A stretch of 64,000 nt of DNA from Bacteroidales bacterium (lineage in GTDB: Bacteria; Bacteroidota; Bacteroidia; Bacteroidales; WCHB1-69): contig JAVBLM010000049.1 of assembly GCA_031553535.1 (NCBI GenBank), positions 11,998 through 75,997 on the forward strand, in the 5' to 3' direction. Shown piece after piece: positions 6,434 to 62,517 of this stretch. Both the position numbers and the translations under genes were made by a program. Each line of letters starts with the position of its first letter. The first letter of the stretch is position 1. The notes below the pieces were generated by a model that had not been told where the DNA came from, made no database searches, and was given only the letters and a program-made list of their open reading frames with translations.

Positions 6434-6476
6434 TAGTTAAGATAATATATTTCAAAAGGGTACTAAATTAGATTAT

Positions 6477-7454: not shown

Positions 7455-8324
7455 TTGTTTTCAGAAAATAAATATAATATGAATTTAAAAGAGGTACAAT
7501 TAATAATTCAAAATATTGACTATATAAATCCGAATGATGAAAACGCGTACGAAAAAGTAATTATACAATTAATGTCTATTAAACCTTTCCCCGTAATTAC
7601 GCATAAAATACATTCTGGTGAATTTCTTTTTAGAAGTAAAATTAAAAAGAGAAATATATTCTTTGACGAAATAGATAAATTATCTATAACCCCTAATAAA
7701 TTTATTCAATCATTTGGAAGGTGTAATAGACCTTTTCAATCAAAATTTTATGCATCAGAGAATAGACCAACATCATATGCTGAATTATTAGAATCATGGG
7801 TTGAGGGAAAAGAAAATAATGACATTATTTATGTGACAGTTGGAATGTGGGAATTGAAAAATAATTTAAATTCTATAATCATTACCACTCCAGATTCTGA
7901 AAATCGATTAAATCAATATGACAAAGAAAATGGGATAATTTTAGATGAATACATTGCTCAATTTGACTCTGAGAGTCAAGAAGCAATAAAAGAAATTTAT
8001 AGATTTTTCTTTGATAGATTCAGGAAAATATCGAAAAACAATTTTAAAAATTATATAATAACAAGTGCTATTACCAATTTAAGTTTGTCGTTAGCAGATA
8101 AAAATGTTTTTGCAATTACTTATCCTAGTGTTCCATTACGTGAGCAAGGAATTAATGTTGCAATTAATAAAGATTTCCTGACCCAAGATAATATTTTCTT
8201 GACTAAAGTTTTAAGAAGTGAATTACTATTATTATTGGATAATGAATCAAAACATATTCTTCGTGAAATAAATCAGAAAGAATCAAAACAAATAAATTAT
8301 AAAACAAGAAAGATTATCTGGTAA
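7455..8324 (+). CDS. Hypothetical protein with a RES-domain-like motif (possible NAD+-targeting toxin)
   Basis: 289 aa (TTG at 7455; first ATG at 7479). FLFRS...FGRCNRPFQSKFYASENRPTSYAELLES resembles the Arg/Tyr/Glu core of RES domains. By-eye call only. Confidence 0.35.
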   Translation: MFSENKYNMNLKEVQLIIQNIDYINPNDENAYEKVIIQLMSIKPFPVITHKIHSGEFLFRSKIKKRNIFFDEIDKLSITPNKFIQSFGRCNRPFQSKFYASENRPTSYAELLESWVEGKENNDIIYVTVGMWELKNNLNSIIITTPDSENRLNQYDKENGIILDEYIAQFDSESQEAIKEIYRFFFDRFRKISKNNFKNYIITSAITNLSLSLADKNVFAITYPSVPLREQGINVAINKDFLTQDNIFLTKVLRSELLLLLDNESKHILREINQKESKQINYKTRKIIW

Positions 8325-8542
8325 TCAAAATCATTATATCAATTAGGTTATAAATACAGTGTGTAATTTTACTTAAAATGTATTTGTTTTGAAATATGGA
8401 TATTTATTATGCTTATTATGAATGCGTTATGTTGCTAATGAAAGGTTCTTTTTCTTGTTCAACGGATTTGACATATATCATCTTTTTAACAAATAATATT
8501 TAATCCATCTAAATTACTTGTTGTTCTACCTTCATTTTTTTG

Positions 8543-8550
8543 TACTTTTG
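8543..8550 (+). promoter_or_regulatory. Candidate -7 promoter box (TAnnTTTG) for the hsd operon
   Basis: tacttttg lies 84 nt upstream of the hsdR ATG. An 8 bp-stem hairpin ttattatg/cataataa sits between the box and the ATG. Confidence 0.35.
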
Positions 8551-8633
8551 CACTTCTATTATGAGTATGAGCATAATAATATGTTACCGTCTTGAATAAT
8601 AGAAACATCTGATATAAGAGAGTTAATGTTTTT

Positions 8634-11600: not shown

Positions 11601-11702
11601 ATTGATAATTATAAGATTAAACTTAATGTGAAAGCAACCGATCAAATCAATGATCTAATTGTGAATGAATATTATAATGAGTATAGAGGAATAAGAATAT
11701 GA
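8634..11702 (+). CDS. hsdR: Type I restriction enzyme, R subunit
   Basis: 1022 aa. N-terminal MTFNEDSRVKIPALLHLVRLGYTYIS. PD-(D/E)xK-like region (RPDIIILINGMPLAFIEVKK). Helicase motifs HTQGSGKT and DEAHRS, and a long coiled-coil tail. Confidence 0.9.
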   Translation: MTFNEDSRVKIPALLHLVRLGYTYISRTEHEKRDGQSNIFSDIFKESIARLNPMLSVNDINKLFEDVLLKLDYDDLGRDFYSILTANSGVKLFDFQDVKNNSFHIATELTYKNGDEEFRPDIIILINGMPLAFIEVKKPNNREGILAERKRMNNRFANHKFKRFVNISQLMIFSNNMPYEDGVIEPIQGAYYATSAYSDLHFNYFREEENLNLTELLAEENEEIENLILKDNNLVSIKYSDEFNVNKHYNTPTNKIITSLLSKERLAFILRYAIAYVEDDIDGIKTIQKHIMRYPQLFATKAIEKKLSEGVKKGIIWHTQGSGKTALVYFNIHFLTDYFQEQNVIPKFYFIVDRIDLADQASREFANRGLIVKRVNSKDEFLQDIKTISPFHNTQGKLEISVVNIQKFTEDTIVTSNIEYDINIQRIYFLDEAHRSYNPKGNYLANLVNSDKDAILIALTGTPLLRDIVKDYDTKALFGDYIHKYYYNRSIDDGYTRRLIREGIDTNYKMQMQNIIEQIQILQGSISTRDIFAHNRFVMPMLDYILNDLKQFRRTEQDNSLAAMVVCDSSGQAKALFSHFEGIYGKQEVDSTITLKTADKDNNSLRAALILHDVNDKHYRKQQIEDFKNGKLDILFVFNMLLTGFDAKRLKKLYLGRVVKDHNLLQTLTRVNRPYKHYMYGYVVDFADITAAFDKANYNYLKELQFELGDEMESYSNLFKNENEIEKEIEEIKDTLFRYDTNNAELFNIQVSEIKERKDLILLLNALQNAKELKNLIRFQGFKDLLERLDFHKMNQLLNVVQAQLDKLNLIDALNNQVDTTNLLNEALEDVVFTFTKISENELVIADELREQLRKTREAMLNNFDTKDLAFISLKEELERLFKKRNLEEISQEGMKENIRLLQAIYDKVTKLNRENDLIKAKYEQDEKYARVHKRLMEAKTLTEKERKLHEALLSVKRTADNRLSRDRNILRNEEFFKTEMMTYVIQQFIDNYKIKLNVKATDQINDLIVNEYYNEYRGIRI

Positions 11703-13324
11703 CAGAAATACAATTTATTCAACAAACAAAAACATTGATTGATAATCTAAAAAGTGTTTGTGCTAATTATGGACTTGGCAATGATGGAAATGAATTCAAG
11801 ATCATAACACAAGTATTTTTATATAAATATATTAACGATAAGTTTCGTTTTGAGGCAAAGAAAGCAAATAAAGTTTTGCAAAAGTCTAAAAACTTTCAAA
11901 AAGCATTTGAAGAGCTTTCAGATGAAGATTATGGATTTTTAATAAGAAGAATAGGGAATAAATCACCAAAGCTAAAACCAGAGCAAACAATTGATTATTT
12001 ATTTAATCGGCAAAATGAAAACGATTTCGCTGCTTTATATTTTGATACAACTTTAAAGGGAATTGGCAAAGAAAATGCAACTTTATATTCTATTAAATCA
12101 ACATCAGGAGCAAAAGATTTGATGTATGATGAACTTAGCCACTTTATTTCCGATCCTTCACAACGAGATGCTTTTTGTCGTGCACTGATATCAAAGTTAG
12201 TAGAATTTAGTTTTGAACATATGTTTGAAGCTAAATATGATTTCTTTGCCACTATCTTTGAATATTTGATTAAAGATTACAATAGTGATAGTGGAGGTAA
12301 ATATGCCGAATATTATACTCCTCATGCCGTAGCTCGTATTATGGCAGCTATTTTAGTAGATTCAGATGAAGATATATACGGTGTAAAATGTTATGATCCT
12401 AGTGCGGGTTCGGGCACACTGTTAATGAATCTGGCACATGCTATCGGTGAACAAAACTGTACGATTTATTCGGAAGACATATCTCAAAAATCATCGAATA
12501 TGCTTCGATTGAATTTGATTTTGAATAACTTATCGCAATCTATTCCAAATGTAATCAAAGGTAATACAATTCTCGAGTCATATTATCATAATGAAAATTT
12601 CGATTATATAGTATCAAATCCTCCGTTCAAGCTTGATTTTTCAGATTATCGGGATGATTTGGATAAAGACAGCAATAAGGAACGTTTCTTTGCAGGAATT
12701 CCTAAAAATCCGAAAAAGGACAAAGATAAAATGGCAATTTATCTGCTTTTTATTCAACATATCATGTTTTGCATGGATGCTAAAAATGGGAAAGCAGCAG
12801 TTGTAGTTCCTACAGGTTTTATTACAGCACAAAGCGGAATAGAAAAGAAAATACGTGAAGCAATGATAAAACGAAAAATATTACGTGGAGTGGTTAGTAT
12901 GCCAAGTAATATTTTTGCCAGTACAGGAACAAATGTAAGTGTGTTATTTTTAGATGCACAAGCTGATACTGAAAAAATTGTGTTGGTTGATGCTAGTAAG
13001 CTAGGTGAAACTGTGAAAGATGGCAAAGCACAGCGAACTATTCTTACACCTGAAGAAGAGCAACGTATTATTGCGGCTATGAATAAAAAGCAAGCCGAAG
13101 AGGATTTTTCAGTAGTAATAACAAAAGAAGACATTATAGCTAAAAATTACTCGTTTAGTGCAGGGCAATACTTCGAAGTAAAGATAGAATACGTAGATAT
13201 TACAGCCGAAGAGTTTTCTGAGAAAATGAAAAGCTATACAAATATGCTTGATTCCCTTTTTTCCGAATCACACCGATTGGAAGAAGAGATAAAAAAACAA
13301 TTGGGAGGATTAAAATATGAATGA
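11699..13324 (+). CDS. hsdM: Type I R-M N6-adenine DNA methyltransferase, M subunit
   Basis: 541 aa with a 4 nt overlap on hsdR. Motifs YYTPHAVARIM, DPSAGSGTLL (motif I) and IVSNPPF (motif IV). Confidence 0.9.
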   Translation: MTEIQFIQQTKTLIDNLKSVCANYGLGNDGNEFKIITQVFLYKYINDKFRFEAKKANKVLQKSKNFQKAFEELSDEDYGFLIRRIGNKSPKLKPEQTIDYLFNRQNENDFAALYFDTTLKGIGKENATLYSIKSTSGAKDLMYDELSHFISDPSQRDAFCRALISKLVEFSFEHMFEAKYDFFATIFEYLIKDYNSDSGGKYAEYYTPHAVARIMAAILVDSDEDIYGVKCYDPSAGSGTLLMNLAHAIGEQNCTIYSEDISQKSSNMLRLNLILNNLSQSIPNVIKGNTILESYYHNENFDYIVSNPPFKLDFSDYRDDLDKDSNKERFFAGIPKNPKKDKDKMAIYLLFIQHIMFCMDAKNGKAAVVVPTGFITAQSGIEKKIREAMIKRKILRGVVSMPSNIFASTGTNVSVLFLDAQADTEKIVLVDASKLGETVKDGKAQRTILTPEEEQRIIAAMNKKQAEEDFSVVITKEDIIAKNYSFSAGQYFEVKIEYVDITAEEFSEKMKSYTNMLDSLFSESHRLEEEIKKQLGGLKYE

Positions 13325-15200
13325 CTTGCGGGATTTTATTGATCAATTGAGGCAAACGGATGAGTGTGATAATCTGGAAGCTAAAAAAGCATCAGAGATT
13401 GGAAAATCTGTTTTGGAAACAGTTTGTGCTTTCAGCAACGAACCCGGCTTAAACGGAGGACATATTCTGTTGGGCGTGGAAAAGGAAGACGAAACCATGA
13501 GTTTGTTTCCTGATTATGTAGCAACAGGCATTGAAAACAACCTATTGGATAAAATACAATCCGATTTAGCTTCGCAATGTGCCGATAGTTTTAATATTCC
13601 TATTCGTCCCCAGATAAAGACCAACAAAGTCAGTGATACACATAGTGTAATTATTGTTCATGTTAACGAATTAAGCCCGGAACAAAAACCGGTTTATTTT
13701 AAAAATGCAGGACTTCCCAAAGGAGCTTTTCGTAGAATTGGCGCAACTGACCATAAATGCACGGAAGATGATTTGGCTATTTTCTATCAAAGTAATGATT
13801 CTTTGGATAAATCGGTGGTACAAGATGCAAGCTTAGAGGATTTAGACGAAAGTGTCATTGATCTTTATCGTAATTTGAGAAATAAAGTCAATCCGATAGC
13901 AGAAGAGCTGAATTACAACAACATCGATCTGCTATATAGTTTGGGCGCATTGAAAAACATAAAGGGCAATTATTCCGTTACTTACACAGGATTGCTGTGT
14001 TTTGGAAAACGGATGGCGCTCCGCCGGTTATTGCCATTGGTGCGTGTTGATTACGTTCGAACGTCTACCAATCAATGGGTGCAAGACCCTGAAAAAAGAT
14101 TCGAAACTACGTTGGATATGCGCGGTTCTTTGTTGGAAATGGTACAACGAATTATTCACGCCATTTCGGATGATTTACCAAGAGGATTTGTTTTGACCGA
14201 CGAAAATATTCAAGCCAAAAATATAGGATTGCCTTTACGAGTATTGCGTGAAGCTGTTGTAAATGCCTTGATACACCGTTCGTATCGAGAAAACCGACCC
14301 ATACAGATTATTCGTTATCCTAACCGGATTGAAATTACAAACCCCGGCTTCTCATTAAAGTCGGAAGATAAATTAGGAGAGCCCGGCTCAATAAACCGAA
14401 ATCCTTTTATTGCCAGTATATTTCATGAAACCAATTTAGCTGAAACCAAAGGGAGCGGTATTCGCACTATGCGAAGTTTTATGCAGAAAATGGAGATGAT
14501 TCCACCTACTTTTGAAAGCAGCCGAGAAGAAAATACATTTACTGTTCGCCTCTTACTGCACCACTTCCTTAACGAAGATGACCTTGTATGGTTGCAACAA
14601 TTCAACGATTACGATTTAGACGATAACCGAAAACGTATCCTTATTTTTGTGCGTGAAGTCGGAGCGATAGATAATCTGTCGGCAAGGCAAATAAACGGAA
14701 CGGGACAAGCGGTTACCAATGTCGATTTAAAGAAAATGAGAGACAAAGATTTGCTTGAGCAAAAAGGAAAAAATAAGTCAACGTATTATATTGCTGGTAA
14801 AAAGCTTATAGAACAACTTCCCACTAAAGAAAATTCGGAAGAAGAGATTAGTGCACCACCTAAAAACCTTAGTGCACCACTTAAAAACCTTAGTGCACCA
14901 CCTAAGCAACAAGAAAAAGTATTAATCAAAATACAACAACGGATAGCAGAACTGCCACAGCGAATAAACGATAAGCAGGTTTTGATGGATATTATTTGTG
15001 AATTATGTTCTATATATCCTGTCAAATTGAGCGAATTGGCACGAATAACGAAAAGAACAGAAAAATATATTCTTCGCCAATTTGTACGTCCTTTGTTAAA
15101 CGATAAACGGATCGAATATAAATATCCTGAAATGATTAACCACCCTGACCAAGCATATAAAGCAAAAAACAAAACTGGACAAGACAATGGGGATAAATAG
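13317..15200 (+). CDS. AlbA_2 (Schlafen-type) DNA-binding plus HATPase_c_4-like ATP-binding protein with C-terminal wHTH-like region
   Basis: 627 aa with an 8 nt overlap on hsdM. N-terminus DNLEAKKASEIGKSVLETVCAFSNEPGLNGGHILLGVEKED is AlbA_2-like. REAVVNALIHRSYRENRPIQIIRYPNRIEITNPG is HATPase_c_4-like. Such genes are often annotated as RecG-like or divergent AAA regulators. Confidence 0.55.
   Translation: MNDLRDFIDQLRQTDECDNLEAKKASEIGKSVLETVCAFSNEPGLNGGHILLGVEKEDETMSLFPDYVATGIENNLLDKIQSDLASQCADSFNIPIRPQIKTNKVSDTHSVIIVHVNELSPEQKPVYFKNAGLPKGAFRRIGATDHKCTEDDLAIFYQSNDSLDKSVVQDASLEDLDESVIDLYRNLRNKVNPIAEELNYNNIDLLYSLGALKNIKGNYSVTYTGLLCFGKRMALRRLLPLVRVDYVRTSTNQWVQDPEKRFETTLDMRGSLLEMVQRIIHAISDDLPRGFVLTDENIQAKNIGLPLRVLREAVVNALIHRSYRENRPIQIIRYPNRIEITNPGFSLKSEDKLGEPGSINRNPFIASIFHETNLAETKGSGIRTMRSFMQKMEMIPPTFESSREENTFTVRLLLHHFLNEDDLVWLQQFNDYDLDDNRKRILIFVREVGAIDNLSARQINGTGQAVTNVDLKKMRDKDLLEQKGKNKSTYYIAGKKLIEQLPTKENSEEEISAPPKNLSAPLKNLSAPPKQQEKVLIKIQQRIAELPQRINDKQVLMDIICELCSIYPVKLSELARITKRTEKYILRQFVRPLLNDKRIEYKYPEMINHPDQAYKAKNKTGQDNGDK
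14850..14905 (+). repeat. 21 bp in-frame tandem repeat (2 full units plus a 14 nt partial third unit) encoding SAPPKNL/SAPLKNL/SAPPK
   Basis: agtgcaccacctaaaaacctt / agtgcaccacttaaaaacctt / agtgcaccacctaa... An echo, aaaaccttagtgcactactt, lies in the intergenic region at 15301-15320. Confidence 0.85.
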
Positions 15201-15351
15201 ACTTTATACTGCAAGGATAGAACAAGCTGTTTTTCTTTTTGACAAAAGTATACCAGAAAGTACCCTTAGTGATACAGCTGTTTGGTTTAGTGATACAGTT
15301 AAAACCTTAGTGCACTACTTAAAGATAAAAAACAGTTGGGAGGGTTGAGGT

Positions 15352-17205
15352 ATGAATAAGATTAAGCTCAAAGAGGTCGCTTACTACTCTAAATTAAGAG
15401 GAAATATTGAAGAAATAAGTTTAGATAACTATGTAACAACAGACAATCTTCTTCAAAATAAATTAGGAGTTGGGAAAGCTGTTAATCTGCCCCCTAATGG
15501 CATATCTTTTCCTAAGTATAGAGAAAATGACATTCTAATTTCAAATATTCGCCCATATTTAAAGAAAATATGGTTTGCAAATCAATCCGGTATATGTTCT
15601 ACTGATGTTCTTGTATTAAAAACATATGATAATTACAACGAAAAATTCATATACTACAATCTATTTCAAGACGCTTTTTTTGAACATATGACAAAAGGAG
15701 CAAAAGGAACAAAAATGCCTAGGGGAGATAAAAATCAAATATTAAATTTTGAAATACCAGAATTTTCATTGCAAACGCAACAACGCATAGCTTCCGTTCT
15801 TTCTTCTTTAGATGACAAGATCGAACTTAACAACCGAATCAATGCCGAATTGGAAGAGATGGCCAAAACGCTTTATGATTATTGGTTTGTACAATTCGAT
15901 TTTCCCGATGCCAATGGCAAACCCTATAAATCGTCGGGAGGTAAAATGGCGTATAATAAAGAATTGAAACGGGAGATTCCGGAAGGGTGGGAAGTAGTTG
16001 AATTAGAATCTATATTGACTGAATTTATTAAAGGTATTACTACCGAATATGTAGAAAAAAGTAATTTAATAAATCTAAATCAAAAAGTAAATAAAGGAGC
16101 TAAATTAGAAAGAGAGTATTTCAAGTATCTAGATGAGTCAAGACCTATTCCAAAAGAAAAATATGCAAAAGAAAAAGATATTCTTATAAATTCTTTAGGG
16201 CAAGGAACATTAGGAAGGGTTCATTTTTTTTGTGATAAAGCAAATAATATTGTAGTAGATCAACACCTTTTTATATTGAGATGCAACGAGAAAATTATGA
16301 AGCCGACATATTTATATCTTCATCTAAGTAGTAATCCTTATCAACGACAGATAGAACGACAAATTACAGGTAGCACAGGGATGTTGATGCTTAACGGCTC
16401 TAATCTAAAAACATTACAAATCATAAAACCTAAATTTGAATTGCTCAATAAGTTTGAAAGCAAAGTTTTTTATTTGTATAATACAATAGCTCGAAATGAA
16501 TCTGAAAACCAACATCTTACTTGTTTTCGCGATTGGTTACTGCCTATGCTGATGAATGGGCAAGTTGGGTTTAAGGAAGATTTTCAAAAACAAACAATTG
16601 CAGTGATTGTTAAGAAATCAACTCAAGAAGGGAATTATCATAAAATACAAAGTGTTTATACTGTTTTATGGGCAAATAATTTAATTGGAGTCCAACAAGG
16701 GGAAATGGCATTAGCCAAAGATTTATATTTGGTTGATAGAATAGCAGGAGTTAATACTGGCTTTGCTTATGCTCAGCATAATTGGGGATCATATGATCCA
16801 TCTTTCAAAAAGATAATAACCAACAAACAATATTTTACAAAACATAACTTTCCAGGTAGTAAGGCTTATTACTGTAGTACAAACGATGATGGTTATCTAC
16901 TTGCTAAAATACCAGACGATACCAAGCAAAGGGTGAAAGCTACTATTGAGTTATTACATAATAAGATTTTTATAAAATATTTTGGAAAAAAAAAAGCAGA
17001 AATGAAAGAGTTATATGCAACAGTTTTAATGTGTATAGAAAATACAAAAAGTACGGAGCTACCTGTAATTCGCCAAGCTATGGAAGATTGGAAAACACCT
17101 AAACAAGATTTTTCGGATAAAGCGGCAAAGTTTTCGGAGCAGTTGACCAAAGAAGCTCTATATATAATATTGGAAGCAGGTTGGGATAAAAAGGTGATAA
17201 AATAA
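15352..17205 (+). CDS. hsdS: Type I R-M specificity subunit with an unusual ~200 aa C-terminal extension
   Basis: 617 aa. Two TRDs are separated by the central conserved helix (LQTQQRIASVLSSLDDKIELNNRINAELEEMAKTLYDYWFVQFDFP). The canonical HsdS C-terminal motif WLLPMLMNGQVGF occurs near residue 400, encoded at ~16540-16578. About 200 additional residues follow. Confidence 0.85.
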   Translation: MNKIKLKEVAYYSKLRGNIEEISLDNYVTTDNLLQNKLGVGKAVNLPPNGISFPKYRENDILISNIRPYLKKIWFANQSGICSTDVLVLKTYDNYNEKFIYYNLFQDAFFEHMTKGAKGTKMPRGDKNQILNFEIPEFSLQTQQRIASVLSSLDDKIELNNRINAELEEMAKTLYDYWFVQFDFPDANGKPYKSSGGKMAYNKELKREIPEGWEVVELESILTEFIKGITTEYVEKSNLINLNQKVNKGAKLEREYFKYLDESRPIPKEKYAKEKDILINSLGQGTLGRVHFFCDKANNIVVDQHLFILRCNEKIMKPTYLYLHLSSNPYQRQIERQITGSTGMLMLNGSNLKTLQIIKPKFELLNKFESKVFYLYNTIARNESENQHLTCFRDWLLPMLMNGQVGFKEDFQKQTIAVIVKKSTQEGNYHKIQSVYTVLWANNLIGVQQGEMALAKDLYLVDRIAGVNTGFAYAQHNWGSYDPSFKKIITNKQYFTKHNFPGSKAYYCSTNDDGYLLAKIPDDTKQRVKATIELLHNKIFIKYFGKKKAEMKELYATVLMCIENTKSTELPVIRQAMEDWKTPKQDFSDKAAKFSEQLTKEALYIILEAGWDKKVIK

Positions 17206-19235
17206 TGGATTTCTTCACGCAGAAAGATTTAGATATTGTAGTAGAATATGCCGGTCAAGACGTATCAACAAATAAGCATAATGAATTAAAGTCTGTTTAT
17301 GAAAAATTAGAATATTTTCTTCAACTTTTACAATTAAAAGGATTTTCATATGAAATAAGAAAAGATCCCCGTAAACAACATGGACGAGGAAAATTTGTTT
17401 TTCAGGACTACCTTTGGTCTAGGGTTTATCCAAAAGAGTTTGTGAAAGATTCTAAAGGAAAATTTGGTTATATTGTGGGAGCAAATGATGGAGTTATAGT
17501 ATTTCATATAATGGGGATCAAAGAATTCCAAAATCATGAAGCTTCTTTATTCGCTCATAATAGTTGTTATACAAAAATCAATATAAATGGATTAGATTAT
17601 GATAAACTTGTAGAACGTTTCATTGATTTTGATAAACAATATAGGGAGTTGTATATATCAACAGGAGCTAAATTAGGCATAAAAAAATTTCAAAAATATT
17701 TAGAGAAAAATCGTATGGAAAGCATTGTTAATCTATTGAAAAGCAAAAAACAGATTATTCTTCAAGGAGCTCCTGGTACAGGTAAAACATATTTGGCAAA
17801 AAAAATCGCACATCAACTTGTTGGTAACGGAATTGATAGTATTTCAGCTCAGGATATCAAAAAATATATTTATAAAGGATTGACTATAAATAATTGCTCA
17901 CAAAGAGGAACATATATCATAAGAGATATTACTGAAAAGAATGTCATTATTGGTGGGGAAGGTATTGAAGATAAAAATGTTAGTTTTAATAAAATACAAG
18001 AAGCCTATAGCAATACTAAATGGGAAGCAGGAAAGATTACAAATGGATTAGATTCTTATGAGGCTGCAATTGCGAAGTATATTTTCAATAACAATATAGA
18101 TAAAGATTCTCGTATAAAATTAGTCCAATTCCACCCATCTTATACATATGAAGATTTTGTAAGAGGTATTGAGGTTAAGACAGAAAACGGGCAGCCAGAA
18201 TATATAACAAAGAATAAAATTCTAGGAAAATTTGCAGAAGAAGCATTAAAGAATTGGGAGGATTCAAAAAAACAGCCTGACGTTTTATCAAAAGAAAAAT
18301 GGGTGGAAAATCACTTGAAAACTTTTAAGGAAGAATTACAAGAGAAACTTGAAAATGGAGAAATTATTGAATTAAAAGAAGGTAATAAACCGACATTAAC
18401 AGCAATAGAAGAAGATGCATTTAGATGTAATCGCTATAATAATCCCCAAGACTCAGTTCTTATGAAAGATAAGGATATAATTTATGGATATATTGGATTG
18501 TACATGGATAATTCAATATTAAAAATTAAGGATAATCAGAATTTATCAAAATCCGCCCGCAGTGGTATGTATTATTTATATCAAAATCTAATAAATCTAT
18601 TCAAAAAATATCTGGAAGATAAAAATATTTCATATACATATTCGAAGATAAATGGGCTGTCTTTAAGCGAAGATAATTATGTAATTATCATTGACGAAAT
18701 CAACAGAGCTAATCTTCCTGCTGTATTAGGAGAGTTAATCTATGCGTTGGAATATCGTGGTGAAAAAGTAGAAAGTATGTATGCAATAGATGGTGATAAG
18801 GGATTAATCTTACCACCTAATCTTTATATAATCGGTACAATGAATACCGCAGATCGCAGTGTTGGACAGATAGATTATGCAATTCGTCGTCGTTTTGCTT
18901 TTGTTGATATGATTCCAAAATCATTAGCAGGAGAGGTTGATGGCTTTGAAGAAAGATTGTTTAAAAAAGTTTCAGAACTATTTATAAAAGATTATGATGA
19001 ATATACGAGAACTAATAAGATTGTAGCGTCTAATTATATTTCTGATGAATTTCGACCAGAAGATATTTGGATTGGTCATAGTTATTTTATCATGAAAGAT
19101 AAAGAAGGGAATGATATCATGGAAATGCGATTAAAATATGAAATTGTTCCGATATTGAAAGAATATGTGAAGGATGGGATTTTTAAGGAGGCAAAGGTTG
19201 TTGAGAAAAAAATAAGTGAATTATTTCCATCATAA
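17205..19235 (+). CDS. mcrB: McrB-family AAA+ GTPase (modification-dependent restriction component) with uncharacterised N-terminal domain
   Basis: 676 aa. The ATG overlaps the hsdS stop (TAATG). Motifs GAPGTGKTYLAKKIA, VQFHPSYTYEDFVRGI, IIIDEINRANLPAVLGELIYALEYRG and NLYIIGTMNTADRS...RRRF. Confidence 0.8.
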   Translation: MDFFTQKDLDIVVEYAGQDVSTNKHNELKSVYEKLEYFLQLLQLKGFSYEIRKDPRKQHGRGKFVFQDYLWSRVYPKEFVKDSKGKFGYIVGANDGVIVFHIMGIKEFQNHEASLFAHNSCYTKININGLDYDKLVERFIDFDKQYRELYISTGAKLGIKKFQKYLEKNRMESIVNLLKSKKQIILQGAPGTGKTYLAKKIAHQLVGNGIDSISAQDIKKYIYKGLTINNCSQRGTYIIRDITEKNVIIGGEGIEDKNVSFNKIQEAYSNTKWEAGKITNGLDSYEAAIAKYIFNNNIDKDSRIKLVQFHPSYTYEDFVRGIEVKTENGQPEYITKNKILGKFAEEALKNWEDSKKQPDVLSKEKWVENHLKTFKEELQEKLENGEIIELKEGNKPTLTAIEEDAFRCNRYNNPQDSVLMKDKDIIYGYIGLYMDNSILKIKDNQNLSKSARSGMYYLYQNLINLFKKYLEDKNISYTYSKINGLSLSEDNYVIIIDEINRANLPAVLGELIYALEYRGEKVESMYAIDGDKGLILPPNLYIIGTMNTADRSVGQIDYAIRRRFAFVDMIPKSLAGEVDGFEERLFKKVSELFIKDYDEYTRTNKIVASNYISDEFRPEDIWIGHSYFIMKDKEGNDIMEMRLKYEIVPILKEYVKDGIFKEAKVVEKKISELFPS

Positions 19236-19243
19236 ATACTAAT

Positions 19244-20228
19244 ATGATTGTAATATCCGAACAGTACGGTTTTAAATTAGAAAATCGGCGGCTTCTTAAT
19301 TTGAAACAAGATTGTCGTGATAAGCTTTCTGAAGATGAATGTTATCAGTATAAAGTAAAACGTAAAAACGACAACAAACTTTGCTATGAAATATATTTTG
19401 ACAAAGATGATAATGATTTTCATTTTCAAACTTCTTATTTTATTGGAGTTGATTGGATAATGTCGAAAGATACGATTAACGCTTTTATTAAATGGTTAAG
19501 TGAGAATTTACATGATAAGAAATATCTTATTGTGAGTTGGTTTGGAGGAGAACCATTGCTTGCATTTCCTACAATAAAGGAATTAACAGAAAAAATAATT
19601 GTACTTTGTAATAAGCATAAATGTGAATATTTTGCGTCAATAACAACAAATGGCTATTATCTTACCGAAGATATTTTTAATTCCTTTCCAAAATTGAAAA
19701 TAAAGGATGTTCAAATAACTTTTGATGGAGATAGAAATATACATAATAAGTATAAGTTTGATAAAAATGGTATTGGTTCTTTTGATAGATTGGTAGATAA
19801 TGTAGAGAAATATTGTGAAATGTCATCTAACGATTATCCGTTAAAAATACGTGTCAATGTAACAGATGATAATTTTGATTCAATACCGGCTCTATTAGAC
19901 CGTTTTTCATCAAATGTAAAAGAAAGTTCATTAATTTTTTTCAGATGGGTCTTCTCTAAGCGAAAAAATAAAATTCAATAATATAGATTATAATGAAATA
20001 ACACCTCTTCCATTTATAGAATCTTATAATGAAGTGTTGCCATTTATTACTAACGTTTACTTAGGAGCAGCTGTCGACAATTTTGAATATTGGGCATCGT
20101 ATTTTGAACATCGAAAAAAAAGGATATGTTCAAATTTAAAAAAAGGTAATCAAATACAAAAGGGAAAAGCAGAATGTATTGAGAAAATTAAAATTGAACG
20201 TTCTAGTTGTCCTTATAAAAAAAAGTAG
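19244..20228 (+). pseudogene. Chimeric remnant: McrC-like N-terminus (~72 aa) fused to a radical SAM/SPASM-family fragment lacking the CxxxCxxC motif, then frameshifted
   Basis: Residues 1-72 (...FHFQTSYFIGVDWI) sit in the McrC position after mcrB. From MSKDTINAFIKWL...VSWFGGEPLL...ITTNGYYL...ITFDGDRNIHNKYK the sequence parallels the intact rSAM at 58277-59596, but it starts just after where the Cys cluster would be. The frame breaks near a T7 run (~19935-19941). The continuation is the 20034..20228 ORF frame. Confidence 0.65.
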
Positions 20229-56759: not shown

Positions 56760-57647
56760 ATGCCTGCAAATGATTTGAATTTTATCGAAGCAAAAACAAT
56801 ATTATCCAAGTTGAGGCAAACTGATAATTTCTTTGGACTAACTTATAATATGAATTTGTATAGAGGTTGCCAACACGGTTGCATCTATTGCGATACGCGA
56901 AGCGATTGTTATGGAATAGGGGATATTTCGAAAATTTCCGTTAAACAAAATGCTTTGAAATTGCTTGAAAAAGAACTTGCTTCCAAACAAAAGAAAAAAG
57001 GAACCATTGGGACAGGCTCTATGAATGATCCTTATATGCCCATTGAAAAAGACCTTAATTTAACGAGAAATGCACTTCAACTAATTGCCGGTAAAAAATT
57101 CCCGGTACATATCATTACCAAAAGCGATTTGGTTGTTCGTGATATGGATATTTTACAAGATATCACAAAAACATATGCGGCTGTTAGTTTTACGATAACT
57201 ACGTTTGATGATGAACTGGCTCGTAAAATTGAGCCAAATGCATCTTCGTCTTCTTCTCGATTCAAGGCTTTGGAATCTCTTGCCGGAAAAGGCATCTATA
57301 CAGGTATTACACTAATGCCTTTATTGCCTTTTATCAATGATACAAAGGAAAATATAGAGAATATCCTGAAAATGGGCAAGGATATGGGAGCCTCTTATGT
57401 TATCCCCGTGTTCGGGTTGACAATGAGAGATAATTCCAGGGACTATTTATATAAATCGCTTGATATTAATTTCCCCGGTATAAAAGAAAAATATCAAAAC
57501 TGTTTTGGTAATAAATATATTTGCAATAGTTTGAACTATGATGATTTATCTTCTACATATCAGAAGCTTTCAAATAAGTTGGAATTGCCTTATTCTATGA
57601 AATTCTATTCAGCGAAAGAAGAAAGTAAACAATTATCTTTGTTTTAA
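56760..57647 (+). CDS. Radical SAM protein (SplB/COG1533-like)
   Basis: 295 aa with the CxxxCxxC cluster in NLYRGCQHGCIYCDTRS. Confidence 0.65.
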   Translation: MPANDLNFIEAKTILSKLRQTDNFFGLTYNMNLYRGCQHGCIYCDTRSDCYGIGDISKISVKQNALKLLEKELASKQKKKGTIGTGSMNDPYMPIEKDLNLTRNALQLIAGKKFPVHIITKSDLVVRDMDILQDITKTYAAVSFTITTFDDELARKIEPNASSSSSRFKALESLAGKGIYTGITLMPLLPFINDTKENIENILKMGKDMGASYVIPVFGLTMRDNSRDYLYKSLDINFPGIKEKYQNCFGNKYICNSLNYDDLSSTYQKLSNKLELPYSMKFYSAKEESKQLSLF

Positions 57648-57722: not shown

Positions 57723-58214
57723 CTATTTTTCATTTTCTTGCTCGTAGAACGTAGGTGTAGGTTCTAAAAGCAACGCAATTCCTTTTACTTCTCCGATACA
57801 GAGCCAGTTATTGCAAAATTCCTCTACGGTATAAGTTATTAATCCACTGCTTGGGTCGGCGACAAGCACCTCATTCCCTGTTTTCTCTAAAGTAGAGGTG
57901 TCTCCCATCTTTTGGAGTGGCTGAGGAAGGTGATAAACCACAATGAAATGTTTCTGTTTCCAATGTACGATACAAGGCAAAGGGGCATCTTCTACCAATT
58001 TTTCAAAGCCAATACGTACCCCTATTGTTTTAAAGCCCAATCTCTCTGCTGCATCGCTTATGCCTAACATACGTACTCCTGCATGGGTAGCATAACACAT
58101 CTCCCGCAGTTTTTGTATCGTATAGGTTTTACCGTAATGCTTGGCTATCATTGCCAAACAAACGACACCACAGTCCATTTGGCCGAATTGCGGGATAAAA
58201 GGGAATTTAGACAT
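57723..58214 (-). CDS. Stand-alone C39 (bacteriocin-processing, double-glycine) cysteine peptidase domain
   Basis: 163 aa. QMDCGVVCLAMIAKHYG (catalytic Cys), HWKQKHFIVVY (His), VADPSSG (Asp). The ORF stops where the ABC-transporter TMD would normally begin (…LLLEPTPTFYEQENEK*). Confidence 0.8.
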   Translation of the reverse strand: MSKFPFIPQFGQMDCGVVCLAMIAKHYGKTYTIQKLREMCYATHAGVRMLGISDAAERLGFKTIGVRIGFEKLVEDAPLPCIVHWKQKHFIVVYHLPQPLQKMGDTSTLEKTGNEVLVADPSSGLITYTVEEFCNNWLCIGEVKGIALLLEPTPTFYEQENEK

Positions 58215-58276
58215 AAAAAAATTATTTACTATTTAAAAGGAATTTGGAATTTTTCTAATTAATAAATATGTCTTTT

Positions 58277-59596
58277 TTATTGTTTAATATTATTTTGTTC
58301 CAATTCATGTCTTAACAATAAGTAATTTTCCCACTGATTACGCCAAGGAACACAATGATAAAAGCTTTTATTATTAAATTTGTTTTCGATACGCTTGTGC
58401 GGACAACCTCCTCTACATACAGGTAATGAAAAGCAATTCCGGCAAGTGGGGTCTTCAAAAGGATTAGCGCCATACAAATATTTGTTCAAAAGTGTATTAT
58501 TAGTTATGGAAACTATTCCGTTTTCTCCTATTTCTCCTACTTTATATTCTTGGTTTCCTATAATTTCCCAACATTTATACACATTTCCTTCTGCATCAAA
58601 TACCCAACAATTATTATTTCTTACGGCACATTCGGTAATCGTGTCACAAGGATAGATTAGTCTAGAATCACGAGTATGTAACGATACTTCTTTAGAAAAA
58701 GTAAATTTATCTGTATCGTATCTAAATAGACGCGGATTTTCATCGCTCGCCTTTGTGGTTTGTATAATAAATGCGGGTACTACATAGATATTATTGTTAT
58801 TATAACGATTTTTAAAAAAGTCATACACTTTTAAAAAGTCATTTTTGTTTTCTTTATCGGTATTAACACGGATACACAATCGTATATTGTTATTTTCCAT
58901 CACATTAAGTTCGTCTATGTTATGGATAATAGTAGCAAATGTGTCTTTATCCGTCTCTGTATATTTTTTATTATTATGTGTTTCAGGCATTCCATCAATT
59001 GAAACCTGAATATGTCGTATGTTGCAACGAAGTAACAAGTCAATATTTTCCCTTGTTAAGAAATATCCGTTTGTAATGATGTTTGCATTAATGCAGGTAA
59101 ATTTCTGTTTATCTATTTTTTCTGAAATATTTTCTATAATATGAGGAGCTAAAAGAGGTTCGCCTCCAAACCATGTTAGATTGAGCGTATTTATGTTATT
59201 ATGCCTATTGATAAAATCAACTATTTGTTGAACTGTTTTATCACTCATATGGCCCTTTTTCTTATTCTCAAAACAATAGGGGCATGAGAAGTTACAATCC
59301 ATAGTAGGAGCAATTGTTATTACTAATACATTATTTAACCTCCTCTGCTGTTCTATTATTGATTGGAAACTGAAAAAATCTTCTTCCTCATTATCTGTAA
59401 TTACTCTTTTTTCATATAATTTACTCCATAATTCATCATTTTCGACAGTATCGATTACATTGGTTCCATCTTCCTGTTTCTTTTTTAAAAATAAATAAAG
59501 TTCATTATTTATTTCGCCGAAATAATTTGTAAGGGAATTATATATAAAAAACGTATTGTCTTTACTAATTAATTTTGTATGTCTTGATATTTTCAT
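58277..59596 (-). CDS. Radical SAM/SPASM-domain peptide maturase
   Basis: 439 aa. CNFSCPYC cluster, WFGGEPLL, ITNGYFL, and a C-terminal SPASM Cys-rich region (ECAV...YKCWE...CRNCFSLPVCRGGCPHKR). Confidence 0.85.
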   Translation of the reverse strand: MKISRHTKLISKDNTFFIYNSLTNYFGEINNELYLFLKKKQEDGTNVIDTVENDELWSKLYEKRVITDNEEEDFFSFQSIIEQQRRLNNVLVITIAPTMDCNFSCPYCFENKKKGHMSDKTVQQIVDFINRHNNINTLNLTWFGGEPLLAPHIIENISEKIDKQKFTCINANIITNGYFLTRENIDLLLRCNIRHIQVSIDGMPETHNNKKYTETDKDTFATIIHNIDELNVMENNNIRLCIRVNTDKENKNDFLKVYDFFKNRYNNNNIYVVPAFIIQTTKASDENPRLFRYDTDKFTFSKEVSLHTRDSRLIYPCDTITECAVRNNNCWVFDAEGNVYKCWEIIGNQEYKVGEIGENGIVSITNNTLLNKYLYGANPFEDPTCRNCFSLPVCRGGCPHKRIENKFNNKSFYHCVPWRNQWENYLLLRHELEQNNIKQ

Positions 59597-59651
59597 AGGA
59601 TATTATTCATCAAACAATAATCTATTTATCTTGATTCACCGAATCCGGTTT

Positions 59652-60170
59652 TTATCGACCTTCTCCCCATTCCATTATATATCGAAACATTATTCCATCG
59701 GGATTATCAGGTTTATACGGAATCTCTATGCCTATAAAGAAAGTTAATTCTTTTTTTATCCATGAACCATCTTTTAAATATTCTGCCGGATTCCATTGAG
59801 GAATACGATTGAGAACCCGCAGAAATTCTCTACCAATCTTTGTCTTATGATCATACGTTACAATCCTTGTTCTATTACTATCATATGTCTCTACTCCCTC
59901 GTCCATAACATATTTAGGTTTTCCGGAAGCATATATTGTACATATTATATCCATACGCCCTTTTTTCAAAGTGGTATCTGTTACCAAATTCAGATTCAAA
60001 TTTTCATTTAAAAAACGGCGAAGTTCCTCTGTTTCTCCCGGCTTATCTCCCGGAATAGACGGTGGTCTTTTCTGTTCCCGTGGTGTTCTCGCATATTCAG
60101 TCTTTATCTGTCCCTGTACAAAGGAAAAGGAAGCAAAAATTAGACAAACTGTTAATATAAGCGGTTTCAT
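59652..60170 (-). CDS. Secreted TonB_C-like domain protein (paralog 1)
   Basis: 172 aa with signal peptide MKPLILTVCLIFASFSFVQGQ. LRRFLNENLNLNLV...GRMDIICTIYASGKP...IGREFLRVLNRIPQWNPAE..DG fits the TonB C-terminal domain pattern. Paralogous to 60312..60752. Confidence 0.5.
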   Translation of the reverse strand: MKPLILTVCLIFASFSFVQGQIKTEYARTPREQKRPPSIPGDKPGETEELRRFLNENLNLNLVTDTTLKKGRMDIICTIYASGKPKYVMDEGVETYDSNRTRIVTYDHKTKIGREFLRVLNRIPQWNPAEYLKDGSWIKKELTFFIGIEIPYKPDNPDGIMFRYIMEWGEGR

Positions 60171-60203
60171 ATTTATTAAGTACTATTATACATTCCTATT
60201 TTA

Positions 60204-60305
60204 AAATTATTTGTATTTCATTACTTTTTTCGCTGCCTCCTGTTTGTAAATAAGTGTATATGTCGGTAGATGATAATTCGTCTGCTTGTATTTTGATACT
60301 TTCCT
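60204..60305 (-). pseudogene. Orphan 3' fragment of a T9SS C-terminal sorting domain
   Basis: Own translation: FQESIKIQADELSSTDIYTYLQTGGSEKSNEIQIILK*. This parallels the last ~35 residues of the precursor ORF (LSIQIKADELPSAGIYMCVLTGDNEKSNEIQMILK*). The flanking DNA is also duplicated (compare 60171-60305 with 60753-60890). Confidence 0.8.
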
Positions 60306-60311
60306 GAAATT

Positions 60312-60752
60312 TTATTGGCCAAAATAAAGAAACACCAATCCATTAGGGTCATCAGGTTTGTATGGGATCCTTGCAAGTATAGAGAACTTAATTATCTCTT
60401 TTCCCCATAAACCATCTTTTATTAAATGTTCTCTATCTCTCCATTGAATGAGATGGGCAACCCGCAGAAATTCTCTGCCAATCCTTTTATTTCCGGTGTC
60501 TTCCAAGAAATATTTAGGGTTCCCTAATGTATCTATTACACATACTACTTCCACCGCTCCTTTTGCCAGACTGGTATCTGTTACCATCTTCAGGTTAAGA
60601 TTTTCATTAAAAAAATGGCGACACGCCTCCATTCCACCCGGAAAAGGAACCTCGTAATTTTCATGATACTCAGAAAGTCCCAAAGAATCTGTCTGCCCCT
60701 GTACAAAAGAGGCTACAAAACACACACAAACTATCAATATAAGTGGTCTCAT
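60312..60752 (-). CDS. Secreted TonB_C-like domain protein (paralog 2)
   Basis: 146 aa with signal peptide MRPLILIVCVCFVASFVQGQ. RHFFNENLNLKMV...GAVEVVCVIDTLGNP...IGREFLRVAHLIQW aligns with paralog 1. Confidence 0.5.
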   Translation of the reverse strand: MRPLILIVCVCFVASFVQGQTDSLGLSEYHENYEVPFPGGMEACRHFFNENLNLKMVTDTSLAKGAVEVVCVIDTLGNPKYFLEDTGNKRIGREFLRVAHLIQWRDREHLIKDGLWGKEIIKFSILARIPYKPDDPNGLVFLYFGQ

Positions 60753-60783
60753 ATTTTTTATTATTACGTGATATTATACATTC

Positions 60784-61767
60784 CTATTTCAAAATCATTT
60801 GTATTTCATTACTTTTTTCGTTGTCTCCTGTTAATACACACATGTATATACCGGCGGATGGTAATTCGTCTGCTTTTATTTGTATGCTTAATGTGCCGCG
60901 GTCTGTAATATCAAGAGTTTTTATTATAGAGCCCTCCATATCATGTATGTGGAATTCTGCTTTTTGAATGATTTCCGGTATATAACATGCAATAGTTGTT
61001 ATCGTATCAAACGGATTAGGATGGTTTTGAAATACGATTATCTCTTCCATTTCCCCTTTCAAAATCATTTGTATTCCATTACTTTCTTTGCCGTCCCCTG
61101 TTAATACATAGACGTATGTACCGGCAGATGGTAATTCTTTTGCATGTATTTGTATGCTTATTGTTCCGCGGTCTTTAATATCAAAGTTTTTTATTATAAA
61201 ACCTTGAATATCGCGTATGTGTAATTCTGCTTTTTGAATAGTTTTCGGAATATAGCATTCAATAGTTGTTCTCTTATCAAACGGATTGGGATAGTTTTGA
61301 AATACGATTATATCTTTCCCTTCTGCTCCCGCTTCTGGAAAAAAAACTTCGCAACTGCCTATTATAAGACGGGAATGTTGTGATAATTCAGTTATTATTT
61401 CAGGTTCCTTTACAGATGCACCTCCTCCCCACGAGACAAGGCTGGTGCTACTAGAATATGGGTTCGCCCCACCACCACATGTTGCAGCGAATGCTGAGGT
61501 ATGACATCCTGTTATCCAAAAGCAATTAGAACAAGTATACATACCATCAGCACCCTTATCAGCAGTACTAGAACAAGAGGTGCCAACATATATGGAATCA
61601 GAACCACCACCACAGCTCTTAAGCTCATGATAACAATTCATAACAACCGTTAATGGGTTACAATGACTTGCCGCTCCTCCTGCAATATCCCACATTTCAT
61701 TTCTTCCCATGCGTCCTTCTTCTATTGTTCGAAGGGTAAAATCTAATTCTTTTACTTTATCGTTCAT
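60784..61767 (-). CDS. Chimeric precursor-like protein: double-glycine leader, Cys-rich core and two tandem T9SS C-terminal sorting domains
   Basis: Preferred start is ATG 61767 (MNDKVKELDFTLRTIEEGRMGRNEMWDIAGG). The leader ends in the Bacteroidetes-type EMxxIxGG motif and has no hydrophobic signal peptide. The core has 9 Cys and three GGG motifs. It is followed by two 85 aa Por_Secre_tail-like domains (FQNYPNPFDKRTTIECYIP...GIQMILK and FQNHPNPFDTITTIACYIP...EIQMILK). The ORF-track start (TTG 61842) adds 25 residues with no signal-peptide character. Confidence 0.75.
   Translation of the reverse strand: MNDKVKELDFTLRTIEEGRMGRNEMWDIAGGAASHCNPLTVVMNCYHELKSCGGGSDSIYVGTSCSSTADKGADGMYTCSNCFWITGCHTSAFAATCGGGANPYSSSTSLVSWGGGASVKEPEIITELSQHSRLIIGSCEVFFPEAGAEGKDIIVFQNYPNPFDKRTTIECYIPKTIQKAELHIRDIQGFIIKNFDIKDRGTISIQIHAKELPSAGTYVYVLTGDGKESNGIQMILKGEMEEIIVFQNHPNPFDTITTIACYIPEIIQKAEFHIHDMEGSIIKTLDITDRGTLSIQIKADELPSAGIYMCVLTGDNEKSNEIQMILK
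60787..61326 (-). repeat. Tandem in-frame duplication (~270 bp x 2) encoding the two T9SS CTDs
   Basis: CTD2 spans 60787-61041 and CTD1 spans 61057-61311, each preceded by a 5 aa acidic linker (GEMEE for CTD2, AEGKD for CTD1). The DNA blocks ...aatacgattat... recur at 61031 and 61301. Confidence 0.85.
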
Positions 61768-62230
61768 TTTTTTTTCATTTAAACTACCTACTCTTTGAGG
61801 GGCTTTTCGGTAACCGCCCATACACAAATATTTTCTTTGCAAAATAGAAAAAAAATTAATACAAAATACAATAAAATAAAAAAAACATTATTTTGTTGTA
61901 TGTCAAATAAATAAAATTGATATTTTTATAAATCAAAGGCAGGCCTTCTGCAGGGATGAAAATATGTAAAAGTAAAAAACCAATGCAATTTTGCATGAAA
62001 ATTATAAAAATTGCGGAAAAAATAATAATTAACTATGGTGAATTATTTACATTCATTTTGTGGATTTATTGTGAAAAATGAGGTTGCAAGGTAATAAAAA
62101 GGAAGGCATGTAACGATGTTGTCAATAAAGCAAAATTGACTTCTATATTATTGCAATTACAGCCGGCCTTTGAAAGTCGTCCGATTGGCTTTGGAACAAA
62201 TGTAAGATAATATGAAAACAAAAATAAGAG

Positions 62231-62517
62231 GTTTCAAGAAAGTCTACAGGCGTTTTGCTTTTTCGTTTGGATCTTTCAGCAAATGTTGAAAATCTCCCGC
62301 TATTTACTTTGGGTCTTTCAGCAAATGTTGAAAGCCTCTCGCTATTTACTTTGGAACTTTCAGCAAATGTTGAAAGTCTCTAGCTATTTACTTTGGATCT
62401 TTCAGCAAATGTTGAAAATCTCCCGCTATTTACTTTGAAGCTTTCAGCAAAGTCTGAAATGATTAAACTATTTGCTTTAGAGGTTTCGGAAACACCCGAA
62501 AGAACTACGTACTTTTG
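62231..62517 (+). repeat. 42 bp tandem array C (4 good units flanked by degenerate units), unit ctttcagcaaatgttgaaaatctcccgctatttactttggat
   Basis: Unit starts at 62273, 62315, 62357, 62399 and 62441, with degenerate units at 62231 and 62483. Hairpin tttcagc-aaat-gttgaaa has one G.U pair on the + strand. The terminal unit has tttcgg-aaacac-ccgaaa. Confidence 0.9.

Follow-up and report, generated by a model that had tools for sequence, protein, structure and literature searches.

The gene cassette

The stretch of DNA described here, called the window throughout, covers 64,000 nt of a Bacteroidales bacterium (assembly GCA_031553535.1, contig JAVBLM010000049.1, positions 11,998-75,997, forward strand) and harbours a cassette in which a precursor protein is encoded together with a radical SAM (rSAM) enzyme and a protease. 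The precursor combines a double-glycine (GG) type leader peptide and a cysteine-rich core, features of ribosomally synthesized and post-translationally modified peptides (RiPPs), with C-terminal domains (CTDs) of the kind recognized by the T9SS (type IX secretion system). The cassette consists of five open reading frames (ORFs) between positions 57723 and 61767, all in the same direction on the minus strand and separated by intergenic gaps of 31-141 bp. All five ORFs that a first-pass annotation of this DNA had placed here were recovered, at the positions listed in Table 1. Besides the precursor, the rSAM maturase and the C39 peptidase they encode two small secreted proteins, referred to here as accessory paralogs A and B.

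Table 1 Features of the cassette in the window
Feature	Position	Strand	Remarks
Precursor, 327 aa	60784-61767	-	Leader, Cys-rich core and two T9SS CTDs
Accessory secreted protein paralog A, 146 aa	60312-60752	-	Signal peptide ending ...FVQG|Q
Accessory secreted protein paralog B, 172 aa	59652-60170	-	AlphaFold2 mean pLDDT 83; no Pfam match
Radical SAM/SPASM maturase, 439 aa	58277-59596	-	PF04055, TIGR04085
Stand-alone C39 double-glycine peptidase, 163 aa	57723-58214	-	PF03412; Q9, C15, H89, D120
DUF805b RNA motif (RF02914)	61785-61820	-	Candidate cis-regulatory hairpin and conserved tail, 5' untranslated region
Leader, aa 1-31, MNDKVKELDFTLRTIEEGRMGRNEMWDIAGG	61675-61767	-	Alignment of 8 family members
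Cys-rich core, aa 32-150	61317-61674	-	9 Cys, three GGG motifs
T8 homopolymer at core/CTD junction (codons ...EVFFPE...)	61339-61346	-	
T9SS type-A CTD copy 1, ~aa 151-237 (FQNYPNPF...GTYVYVL...IQMILK)	61057-61316	-	PF18962
T9SS type-A CTD copy 2, ~aa 238-327 and stop codon	60784-61056	-	PF18962

The precursor protein

The leader of the precursor (M1-G31) ends in ...RNEMWDIAGG, and a LRTIEEGRxG box, invariant among the family members described below, precedes the GG motif. Leaders of the C39-cleaved type were judged by hydrophobic residues at positions -4, -7 and -12 and an acidic residue at position -8. Counted from the GG site G30-G31, these positions hold I28 (-4), M25 (-7), M20 (-12) and E24 (-8), in agreement with the C39-type leader rule. 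The EMxxIxGG motif is kept in six of the eight family members, P0007 and P0008 being without it. The GG-type leader claimed in the first-pass annotation is borne out by these residues. Its likeness to the curated GG-Bacteroidales leaders was not confirmed, as leader and core gave no match to TIGR04149 at E<=10; P0044, a relative described below, reached 15.1 bits (cutoff 25). The same annotation had stated that the protein lacks a Sec signal peptide, and this was found for either candidate N-terminus and for all eight family members: none has a hydrophobic h-region, the Kyte-Doolittle maximum over 11 residues being at most 1.34. For comparison, five accessory proteins were aligned; the signal peptides of four gave values of 2.6-3.5, and the remaining one, of locus L003, has been called from a start within its own signal peptide.

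The start codon of the precursor gene required a decision. A gene call of 345 aa (P0001) begins at the ATG at 61821, and its N-terminal extension is a translation of a DUF805b RNA motif (39.5 bits, gathering score 35.6, E 1e-8) that lies 17 nt 5' of the precursor ATG. The ATG corresponding to position 61821 reads TTA in L003. Since the extension lies in the RNA motif and its ATG is not kept in L003, the true start is taken to be the ATG at 61767, which gives the leader of 31 aa; the upstream starts TTG 61842 and ATG 61821 were rejected on these grounds. The motif is also located 5' of the precursor gene in L003 (1303-1338, 39.4 bits) and L024 (1120-1155, 36.9 bits), with covariation in its stem from GGC/GCC to GGU/ACC. 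It was not found in locus L001, where the precursor has no GG motif, nor in the CTD-less relatives L014, L029 and L031. The gene behind the motif in the window is unrelated to DUF805.

The core contains nine cysteines, eight of which are invariant in the family, and two conserved segments, SWGGGASV and IITELxxHSxLxIGSCEVF. In the alignment of eight members the invariant features are the LRTIEEGRxG box, the eight core cysteines, SWGGGAS, the I..E...H..L....CE stretch before the CTD, and QNxPxPF within the CTD. The core of ~120 aa with nine cysteines and three GGG motifs, as first annotated, is thus present. The N-terminal 150 residues gave no Pfam or NCBIfam match at E<=10. No confident fold can be assigned to leader and core, since the AlphaFold2 model has a pLDDT (predicted local distance difference test score) of ~25 over residues 1-151.

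The whole precursor scores above the curated cutoffs for T9SS sorting domains, with 48 bits for TIGR04183 (cutoff 23) and 44.3 bits for PF18962 (cutoff 27). Its two CTD copies are a tandem duplication with a period of 270 bp, 85 % identical and without an indel. In the AlphaFold2 model the CTD is a 7-stranded beta-sandwich, with pLDDT values of 65-83 for copy 1 and 75-90 for copy 2. The double CTD occurs only in the form of this genome, all seven homologs having a single CTD. A local hidden Markov model (HMM) scan for the CTD in all retrieved DNA yielded one Ig-like domain only, in a GH53 protein.

A rare family with leader, core and CTD in one reading frame

A search of 5.8 billion proteins revealed seven homologs of the precursor, 43-62 % identical and 215-259 aa in length, and in each of the seven a single ORF runs through the leader, the Cys-rich core and one CTD. 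The double-CTD protein of the window was found in identical form in L007, an independent Logan assembly. An exhaustive HMM search of 1.84 billion representative proteins with a profile of leader and core returned two clusters of the family and one weak relative, P0044. The same profile found no loci in 185,579 species genomes, and in metagenomes of the Joint Genome Institute (JGI) two loci, both already known. The family is very rare and known from metagenomes alone.

The junction between core and CTDs deserves attention, as an error of assembly or a frameshift could have joined CTDs of a separate gene to the precursor. The observation that speaks for such an artefact is that Logan contig L028, which stems from a different run in the same series, has a T9 tract (~464-472) where the window has T8. 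The additional T causes a frameshift that separates the core from the CTDs and leaves a CTD-less product of leader, core and a 26 aa tail. Both the window and the independent Logan contig L007 have T8, however, and the CTD-only frame of L028 has no start codon that carries a signal peptide. Moreover, the seven homologs stem from independent samples and have no homopolymer at the junction. Because these homologs and the second assembly keep one ORF, a fusion by error was rejected; we regard it as very improbable. The fusion of leader, core and CTD in one reading frame, on which the first-pass annotation depended, is therefore real for the family as a whole. The T9 tract of L028 could be a sequencing error, a decaying allele, or the result of slipped-strand switching between a CTD-fused and a CTD-less form. 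A second homopolymer frameshift was found in this type of cassette: a T8 tract splits the rSAM gene of the sister cassette into ORFs of 259 and 182 aa in three independent assemblies, L003 (~3400-3415), L004 and L006, while the intact copy in L005 has T7.

Wherever a locus could be read far enough, precursor, small secreted protein and rSAM follow one another in this order. In L003-L006 the precursor P0006 is followed by a secreted protein of 169 aa, an rSAM and a C39 peptidase of 163 aa. Precursor P0004 (L008) is followed by a secreted protein of 161 aa and then by a gene cut off by the end of the contig. For P0007 (L001 and L002) a secreted protein of 152 aa and an rSAM follow, and a C39 gene is lacking from the surrounding 10 kb of L001 and from the whole of contig L002 (10.9 kb). 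GG motif and C39 gene are thus present or absent together, the GG-less precursors P0007 and P0008 both belonging to loci without C39; the loci are few but consistent. Beside the sister cassettes, genes for Zip, ArsP_1 and HMA proteins and several methyltransferases were found in L001 (13008-17514), and a gene for an ArsP_2 protein in L008 (4689-5861).

The maturase, the peptidase and the accessory proteins

The assignment of a radical SAM/SPASM maturase was upheld by matches to PF04055 (7e-18) and to the SPASM model TIGR04085 (57.9 bits, cutoff 27). The CX3CX2C site of the rSAM domain is formed by C101, C105 and C108, and the seven cysteines of the SPASM domain (C323, C342, C385, C388, C394, C398 and C415) are invariant. 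The enzyme is 69-78 % identical to the rSAMs of sister cassettes. Its homologs fall into tiers: six clusters of at least 63 % identity, which make up the cassette family, about thirty at 45-51 %, and many at 42 % or less. Among curated equivalogs TIGR04463 scored best (198.7 bits, cutoff 525), followed by Clo7bot (178, cutoff 600), CefB (170.5, cutoff 600), PapB (120.7, cutoff 340), SCIFF (77.4, cutoff 425) and QhpD (74.7, cutoff 453). The nearest curated enzymes are thus the TIGR04463, Clo7bot, CefB and PapB-type ranthipeptide maturases.

The C39 peptidase matches PF03412 (1.3e-32), and over its entire length it can be aligned with the PCAT1 peptidase domain (E 8e-18). Its residues Q9, C15, H89 and D120 fall on the catalytic residues of that domain, so that the intact active site claimed earlier was recovered. 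The first-pass annotation had also noted that no ATP-binding cassette (ABC) transporter part follows. Indeed, the ORF halts at residue 163 and a convergent gene is located 75 bp further on. An ortholog of 163 aa, 68 % identical, is encoded in L003-L006. The peptidase is 51 % identical over its full length to the N-terminal domain of the peptidase-containing ABC transporter (PCAT) of L014, and it ends (...LLLEPTPTFYEQENEK) exactly where this transporter runs on into its membrane domain. Judged from these alignments, the C39 of the cassette has the appearance of a domain cut out of a PCAT. In this it resembles the excised C39 domains of PCAT1, ComA and LahT, with the same end-to-end alignment with PCAT1 and the Gln, Cys, His and Asp residues kept. 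It differs from these in that the transmembrane and ATPase domains are naturally lacking, the 163 aa form occurring in two lineages that are 68 % identical.

Paralogs A and B are 49-50 % identical and have signal peptides. They belong to a family of 35 unannotated proteins from Bacteroidales metagenomes, all with signal peptides ending in an invariant G-Q, which presumably reflects the signal peptidase I 'Q-rule' of Bacteroidota. The accessory family is broader than the cassette, in which one of its branches is embedded. For paralog B AlphaFold2 gave a confident alpha/beta model. The two proteins had been described as secreted TonB_C-like paralogs; secretion signals and paralogy stand, the TonB_C assignment is without HMM support. 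Pfam found TonB_C (PF03544) in none of the 32 proteins searched (the two paralogs and 30 relatives), and a profile of the accessory family found no TonB_C among PDB sequences. A Foldseek search of the PDB with the paralog B model gave nothing at E<=1e-3. Among the weak matches the C-terminal domains of TonB, HasB and FusB recur (best E 0.1, probability ~0.6, template modelling (TM) score 0.39-0.59). Without Pfam, profile or significant Foldseek match, 'TonB_C-like' can denote at most a remote resemblance in fold.

CTD-less relatives and the origin of the cassette

Relatives of the maturase outside the cassette family are encoded beside short precursors that lack a CTD. In the tier of rSAMs with 47-51 % identity two loci were read, L029, from a metagenome-assembled genome (MAG) of Marinilabiliaceae, and L031. 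Both have the order precursor of 81-87 aa, rSAM, Peptidase_S41, and a full PCAT with C39, ABC_membrane and ABC_tran domains; in L031 an AprE/HlyD-type gene follows the PCAT gene. The L029 precursor, MEKHKFVIRTIEEGRMENGEMKQVLGG-DIGCSG...SCSGVFSIKIPLPNT (abbreviated MEKHKFVIRTIEEGRMENGEMKQVLGG...SCSGVF), has the leader box, the GG motif and the SCxxVF ending in common with the family of the window and is without a CTD. In the 38 % tier, locus L014 of a Bacteroidales MAG harbours genes for an OEP/TolC protein, a CTD-less, Cys-rich precursor of ~90 aa with a GG leader, a DUF4932 protein, an rSAM, HlyD and a PCAT. Locus L015, of the same tier, has only a precursor of 81 aa, a DUF4932-like secreted protein and an rSAM. 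The weak relative P0044 is a CTD-less precursor of 107 aa that adjoins a DUF4932 gene, and its leader and first Cys block align with the family profile with an hhalign probability of 96 %. The RTIEEGR...GG leader is likewise found in P0044 and in the precursors of L029 and L031, all of them short and without a CTD. Locus L015 further contains a grasp-with-spasm SPASM maturase gene (2418-3536, TIGR04193, 278 bits) and a gene for a second GG-leader peptide that is weakly TIGR04149-like (8468-8731, 16.6 bits, cutoff 25), several RiPP systems being clustered there.

The PCAT-linked rSAM RiPP relatives (L014, L015, L029 and L031, none of them curated) thus share with the cassette the RTIEEGR...EMxxIxGG leader, a Cys-rich core ending in SC(S/E)xVF, homologous rSAM/SPASM enzymes (38-51 % identity), a C39 of the same lineage (51 %), and a secreted-protein gene beside the precursor. 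The differences lie in the export functions. Precursors of the relatives are 81-107 aa long and without a CTD, those of the window family 215-327 aa with one or two CTDs. The C39 of the relatives is fused to an ABC transporter and accompanied by a HlyD-type gene, and in L014 by TolC as well, whereas in the window family it is stand-alone or absent and there is no transporter. The secreted partner also differs, being DUF4932 or Peptidase_S41 in the relatives and a different small family here. It is well supported by these comparisons of sequence, and most economical, that the cassette goes back to an ordinary rSAM RiPP with a GG leader, for which PCAT and HlyD (with or without TolC) served as exporter. 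In the lineage of the window the core would have been lengthened, a T9SS-type CTD added after SCEVF, and the PCAT reduced to its peptidase, a scenario that is equally well supported and economical. The most economical account of the GG-less branch is that the protease was lost as well.

A RiPP-like pathway redirected to type IX secretion?

Taken together, the cassette is best read as a rare RiPP-like maturation cassette of Bacteroidales that has been rewired for type IX secretion, a reading to which we assign a probability of roughly one half. In such a pathway the rSAM/SPASM enzyme would bind the leader box in the cytoplasm and install cross-links on the Cys-rich core. Thioether or ranthipeptide-type links are the most likely product, given the nearest curated rSAM relatives. 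The stand-alone C39 would then cut after the Gly-Gly motif (G31), and the modified protein would be brought to the periplasm by an exporter encoded outside the cassette, which is the weak link of the mechanism. Subsequently the T9SS would recognize the CTD, with passage of the outer membrane, removal of the CTD, and either release of the core or its anchoring at the surface. The co-encoded secreted protein might serve as extracytoplasmic partner, chaperone or immunity factor. The general sequence of steps up to arrival in the periplasm has a precedent in the Qhp system described below, which encodes its own exporter (PMC7876137). The more specific proposal that this is a Sec-independent entry into the T9SS is only tentative and rather doubtful. 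According to it, an rSAM-cross-linked protein would reach the periplasm through an exporter and be secreted or anchored by virtue of its CTD, the T9SS tail replacing PCAT, HlyD and TolC.

The genome has T9SS genes. As the first-pass annotation had claimed, T9SS components are encoded in the window: a PorP/SprF gene at 24429 (213.7 bits, cutoff 90.55) and a GldJ gene at 25515 (450.3 bits, just below the cutoff of 458.2). With type-A T9SS cargo (TIGR04183/PF18962) the precursor shares a C-terminal Por_Secre_tail domain, the QNxPNPF and GxY motifs, a predicted 7-stranded beta-sandwich and the presence of T9SS genes in the genome. It differs from such cargo in that an N-terminal Sec signal is replaced by a leader for cytoplasmic maturation, that the CTD is duplicated and that its scores are borderline. 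Of what was first proposed, the fusion of leader, core and CTD, the missing Sec signal and the T9SS genes were borne out; the hand-over of a leader-cleaved peptide to the T9SS remains a proposal, for which the cassette offers no inner-membrane step.

Several findings weigh against a rewired RiPP pathway. On the side of maturation, the chemistry of the rSAM cannot be assigned by model, because every curated equivalog cutoff is missed. Accessory genes are also encoded alone, in four other contexts far from any rSAM or precursor gene, as single or tandem orphan loci in Bacteroidales MAGs (L009, 6001-6513; L011, 6001-6465; L025/L026; L027, 7001-7504). In addition, the homopolymer variants in the L028 precursor and the L003 rSAM may indicate that the cassette is decaying in some populations. 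On the side of export, T9SS substrates are described as requiring a Sec signal peptide (PMC12618676), and no ABC transporter, HlyD or TolC is encoded in any of the cassettes, which leaves the pathway without an inner-membrane exporter. With its leader already cut off in the cytoplasm, the protein would have lost the one evident feature by which an ABC exporter could take hold of it. Nor can export depend on recognition of the GG motif, as GG-less members without C39 keep the CTD.

A further group of adverse points concerns the CTD itself and leads to an alternative in which the beta-sandwich at the C-terminus does not function as a T9SS signal. It could instead be a CTD-derived or Ig-like scaffold, a solubility tag, or a site where the accessory protein or the maturase docks; the product would then act in the cytoplasm or leave the cell by lysis, in vesicles or through an unrelated exporter. 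The earlier claim of two clearly recognizable T9SS sorting domains holds for the protein as a whole. Taken singly, copy 1 (25.5 bits, E 1.7e-5) and copy 2 (26.1 bits, E 1e-5) both stay under the PF18962 cutoff of 27, and the CTDs of all seven homologs score 15-19 bits or give no match, below the curated thresholds. A profile of the family CTD found no solved T9SS CTD among PDB sequences and missed the PorZ CTD that is present in L027. Foldseek with the model of the whole precursor returned only generic tandem Ig/FnIII domains. The lack of both a Sec signal and a linked inner-membrane exporter also speaks for the alternative. Nevertheless, Por_Secre_tail is the only family match of this region, covers nearly the whole model and is located at the extreme C-terminus, and the hallmark QNxPxPF and GxY motifs are invariant in the family. 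The domain arises exactly in the lineage that lost the ABC and HlyD genes, a gene for an extracytoplasmic partner is always present, and the genome, as noted, has T9SS genes. We consider a CTD without signal function unlikely, though to be reckoned with.

A second alternative is maturation of a protein subunit in place of a peptide natural product, by analogy with QhpC, the gamma-subunit of quinohemoprotein amine dehydrogenase. In the Qhp system a polypeptide is cross-linked by an rSAM in the cytoplasm, its leader is removed there by a stand-alone protease, and it is then exported to the periplasm by an ABC transporter, this logic of QhpC, QhpD, QhpE and QhpF being documented (PMC7876137). QhpC parallels the precursor described here and its proposed maturation in that it lacks a signal peptide, has a leader of ~28 aa, is cross-linked by an rSAM/SPASM enzyme and joins secreted periplasmic partners (PMC7876137). 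By this analogy a small, stapled Cys-rich polypeptide and the secreted protein would together form a complex at the surface that binds, for instance, metals or ligands, and the T9SS tail would provide delivery only. The long core of ~120 aa with strongly conserved non-Cys segments is in line with a subunit, as is the secreted partner gene that is always found between precursor and rSAM. The metal-related neighbours in two loci (Zip and ArsP plus HMA in L001, ArsP_2 in L008) are a possible hint at a metal-related role of the Cys-rich product, but this context is kept neither in the window nor in L003. The Qhp system differs further by its dedicated ABC exporter QhpF, a subtilisin-like protease instead of a C39, and the lack of a T9SS tail, and with 74.7 bits against a cutoff of 453 the rSAM of the window is not a QhpD ortholog. 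The nearest relatives have short GG-leader precursors with a PCAT, an arrangement typical of bacteriocin-like RiPPs, and the accessory family is often encoded alone. We regard a subunit role as improbable.

Surroundings of the cassette in the window

A divergent TolC-family gene starting at 62719 had been noted in the first-pass annotation and was considered as a possible part of the system. It was rejected as a member of the cassette, as it is confined to this genome and absent from the other loci. The ORF gave weak TolC/NodT-type matches only (~36 bits, of RND or metal-efflux types), occurs beside no sister cassette and is unrelated to the OEP of L014. Between the precursor promoter and this gene, at 62266-62502, a 42-bp unit is repeated 4.6 times with 89 % matches. 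Each unit contains the near-palindrome CTTTCAGCAAATGTTGAAA, and the array looks like a set of operator sites.

A nearby ABC exporter was sought among the large ORFs of the window at 1181-19981, where a TonB-dependent receptor, an integrase and a type I restriction-modification/defence island were found instead. The region 4425-19981 on the plus strand encodes the integrase, followed by the type I restriction-modification set HsdR/HsdM/HsdS, a Schlafen/AlbA_2-HATPase protein, an AAA_5/nSTAND3 ATPase and a small radical SAM protein, a content reminiscent of a defence island. Another radical SAM gene (56760-57647, plus strand) is convergent with the C39 gene and belongs to the PA0069/Rv2578c family (173.9 bits, cutoff 360). 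It is probably unrelated to the cassette, since it is missing from the sister loci.

Significance

T9SS cargo has been described as Sec-dependent, and the GG-leader RiPPs of Gram-negative bacteria as leaving the cell via PCAT, HlyD and TolC. The family described here joins a RiPP front end to a T9SS back end, while its closest relatives retain the ancestral arrangement. Its components are each of a known kind; what is undescribed is their combination, in which a RiPP leader and core are fused to a T9SS CTD, a Sec signal is lacking and a PCAT-derived C39 naturally stands alone. Within the set of papers searched, none brought the T9SS together with leader or precursor peptides or with maturation by radical SAM enzymes, and among the curated models of Pfam and NCBIfam none covers the leader and core of the precursor or the accessory protein.

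Should the CTD work, proteins cross-linked in the cytoplasm could be fed into the T9SS, which would allow surface display of stapled peptides in Bacteroidota, and an inner-membrane route that has so far gone unrecognized must exist. Sec-independent entry, if true, would represent a new class of T9SS cargo as well as a new export logic for RiPPs. With a CTD that does not work, the family would clearly exemplify a secretion signal domain taken over for another role. In either case an unannotated precursor family, an unannotated family of secreted proteins and a natural stand-alone double-glycine protease have been defined.

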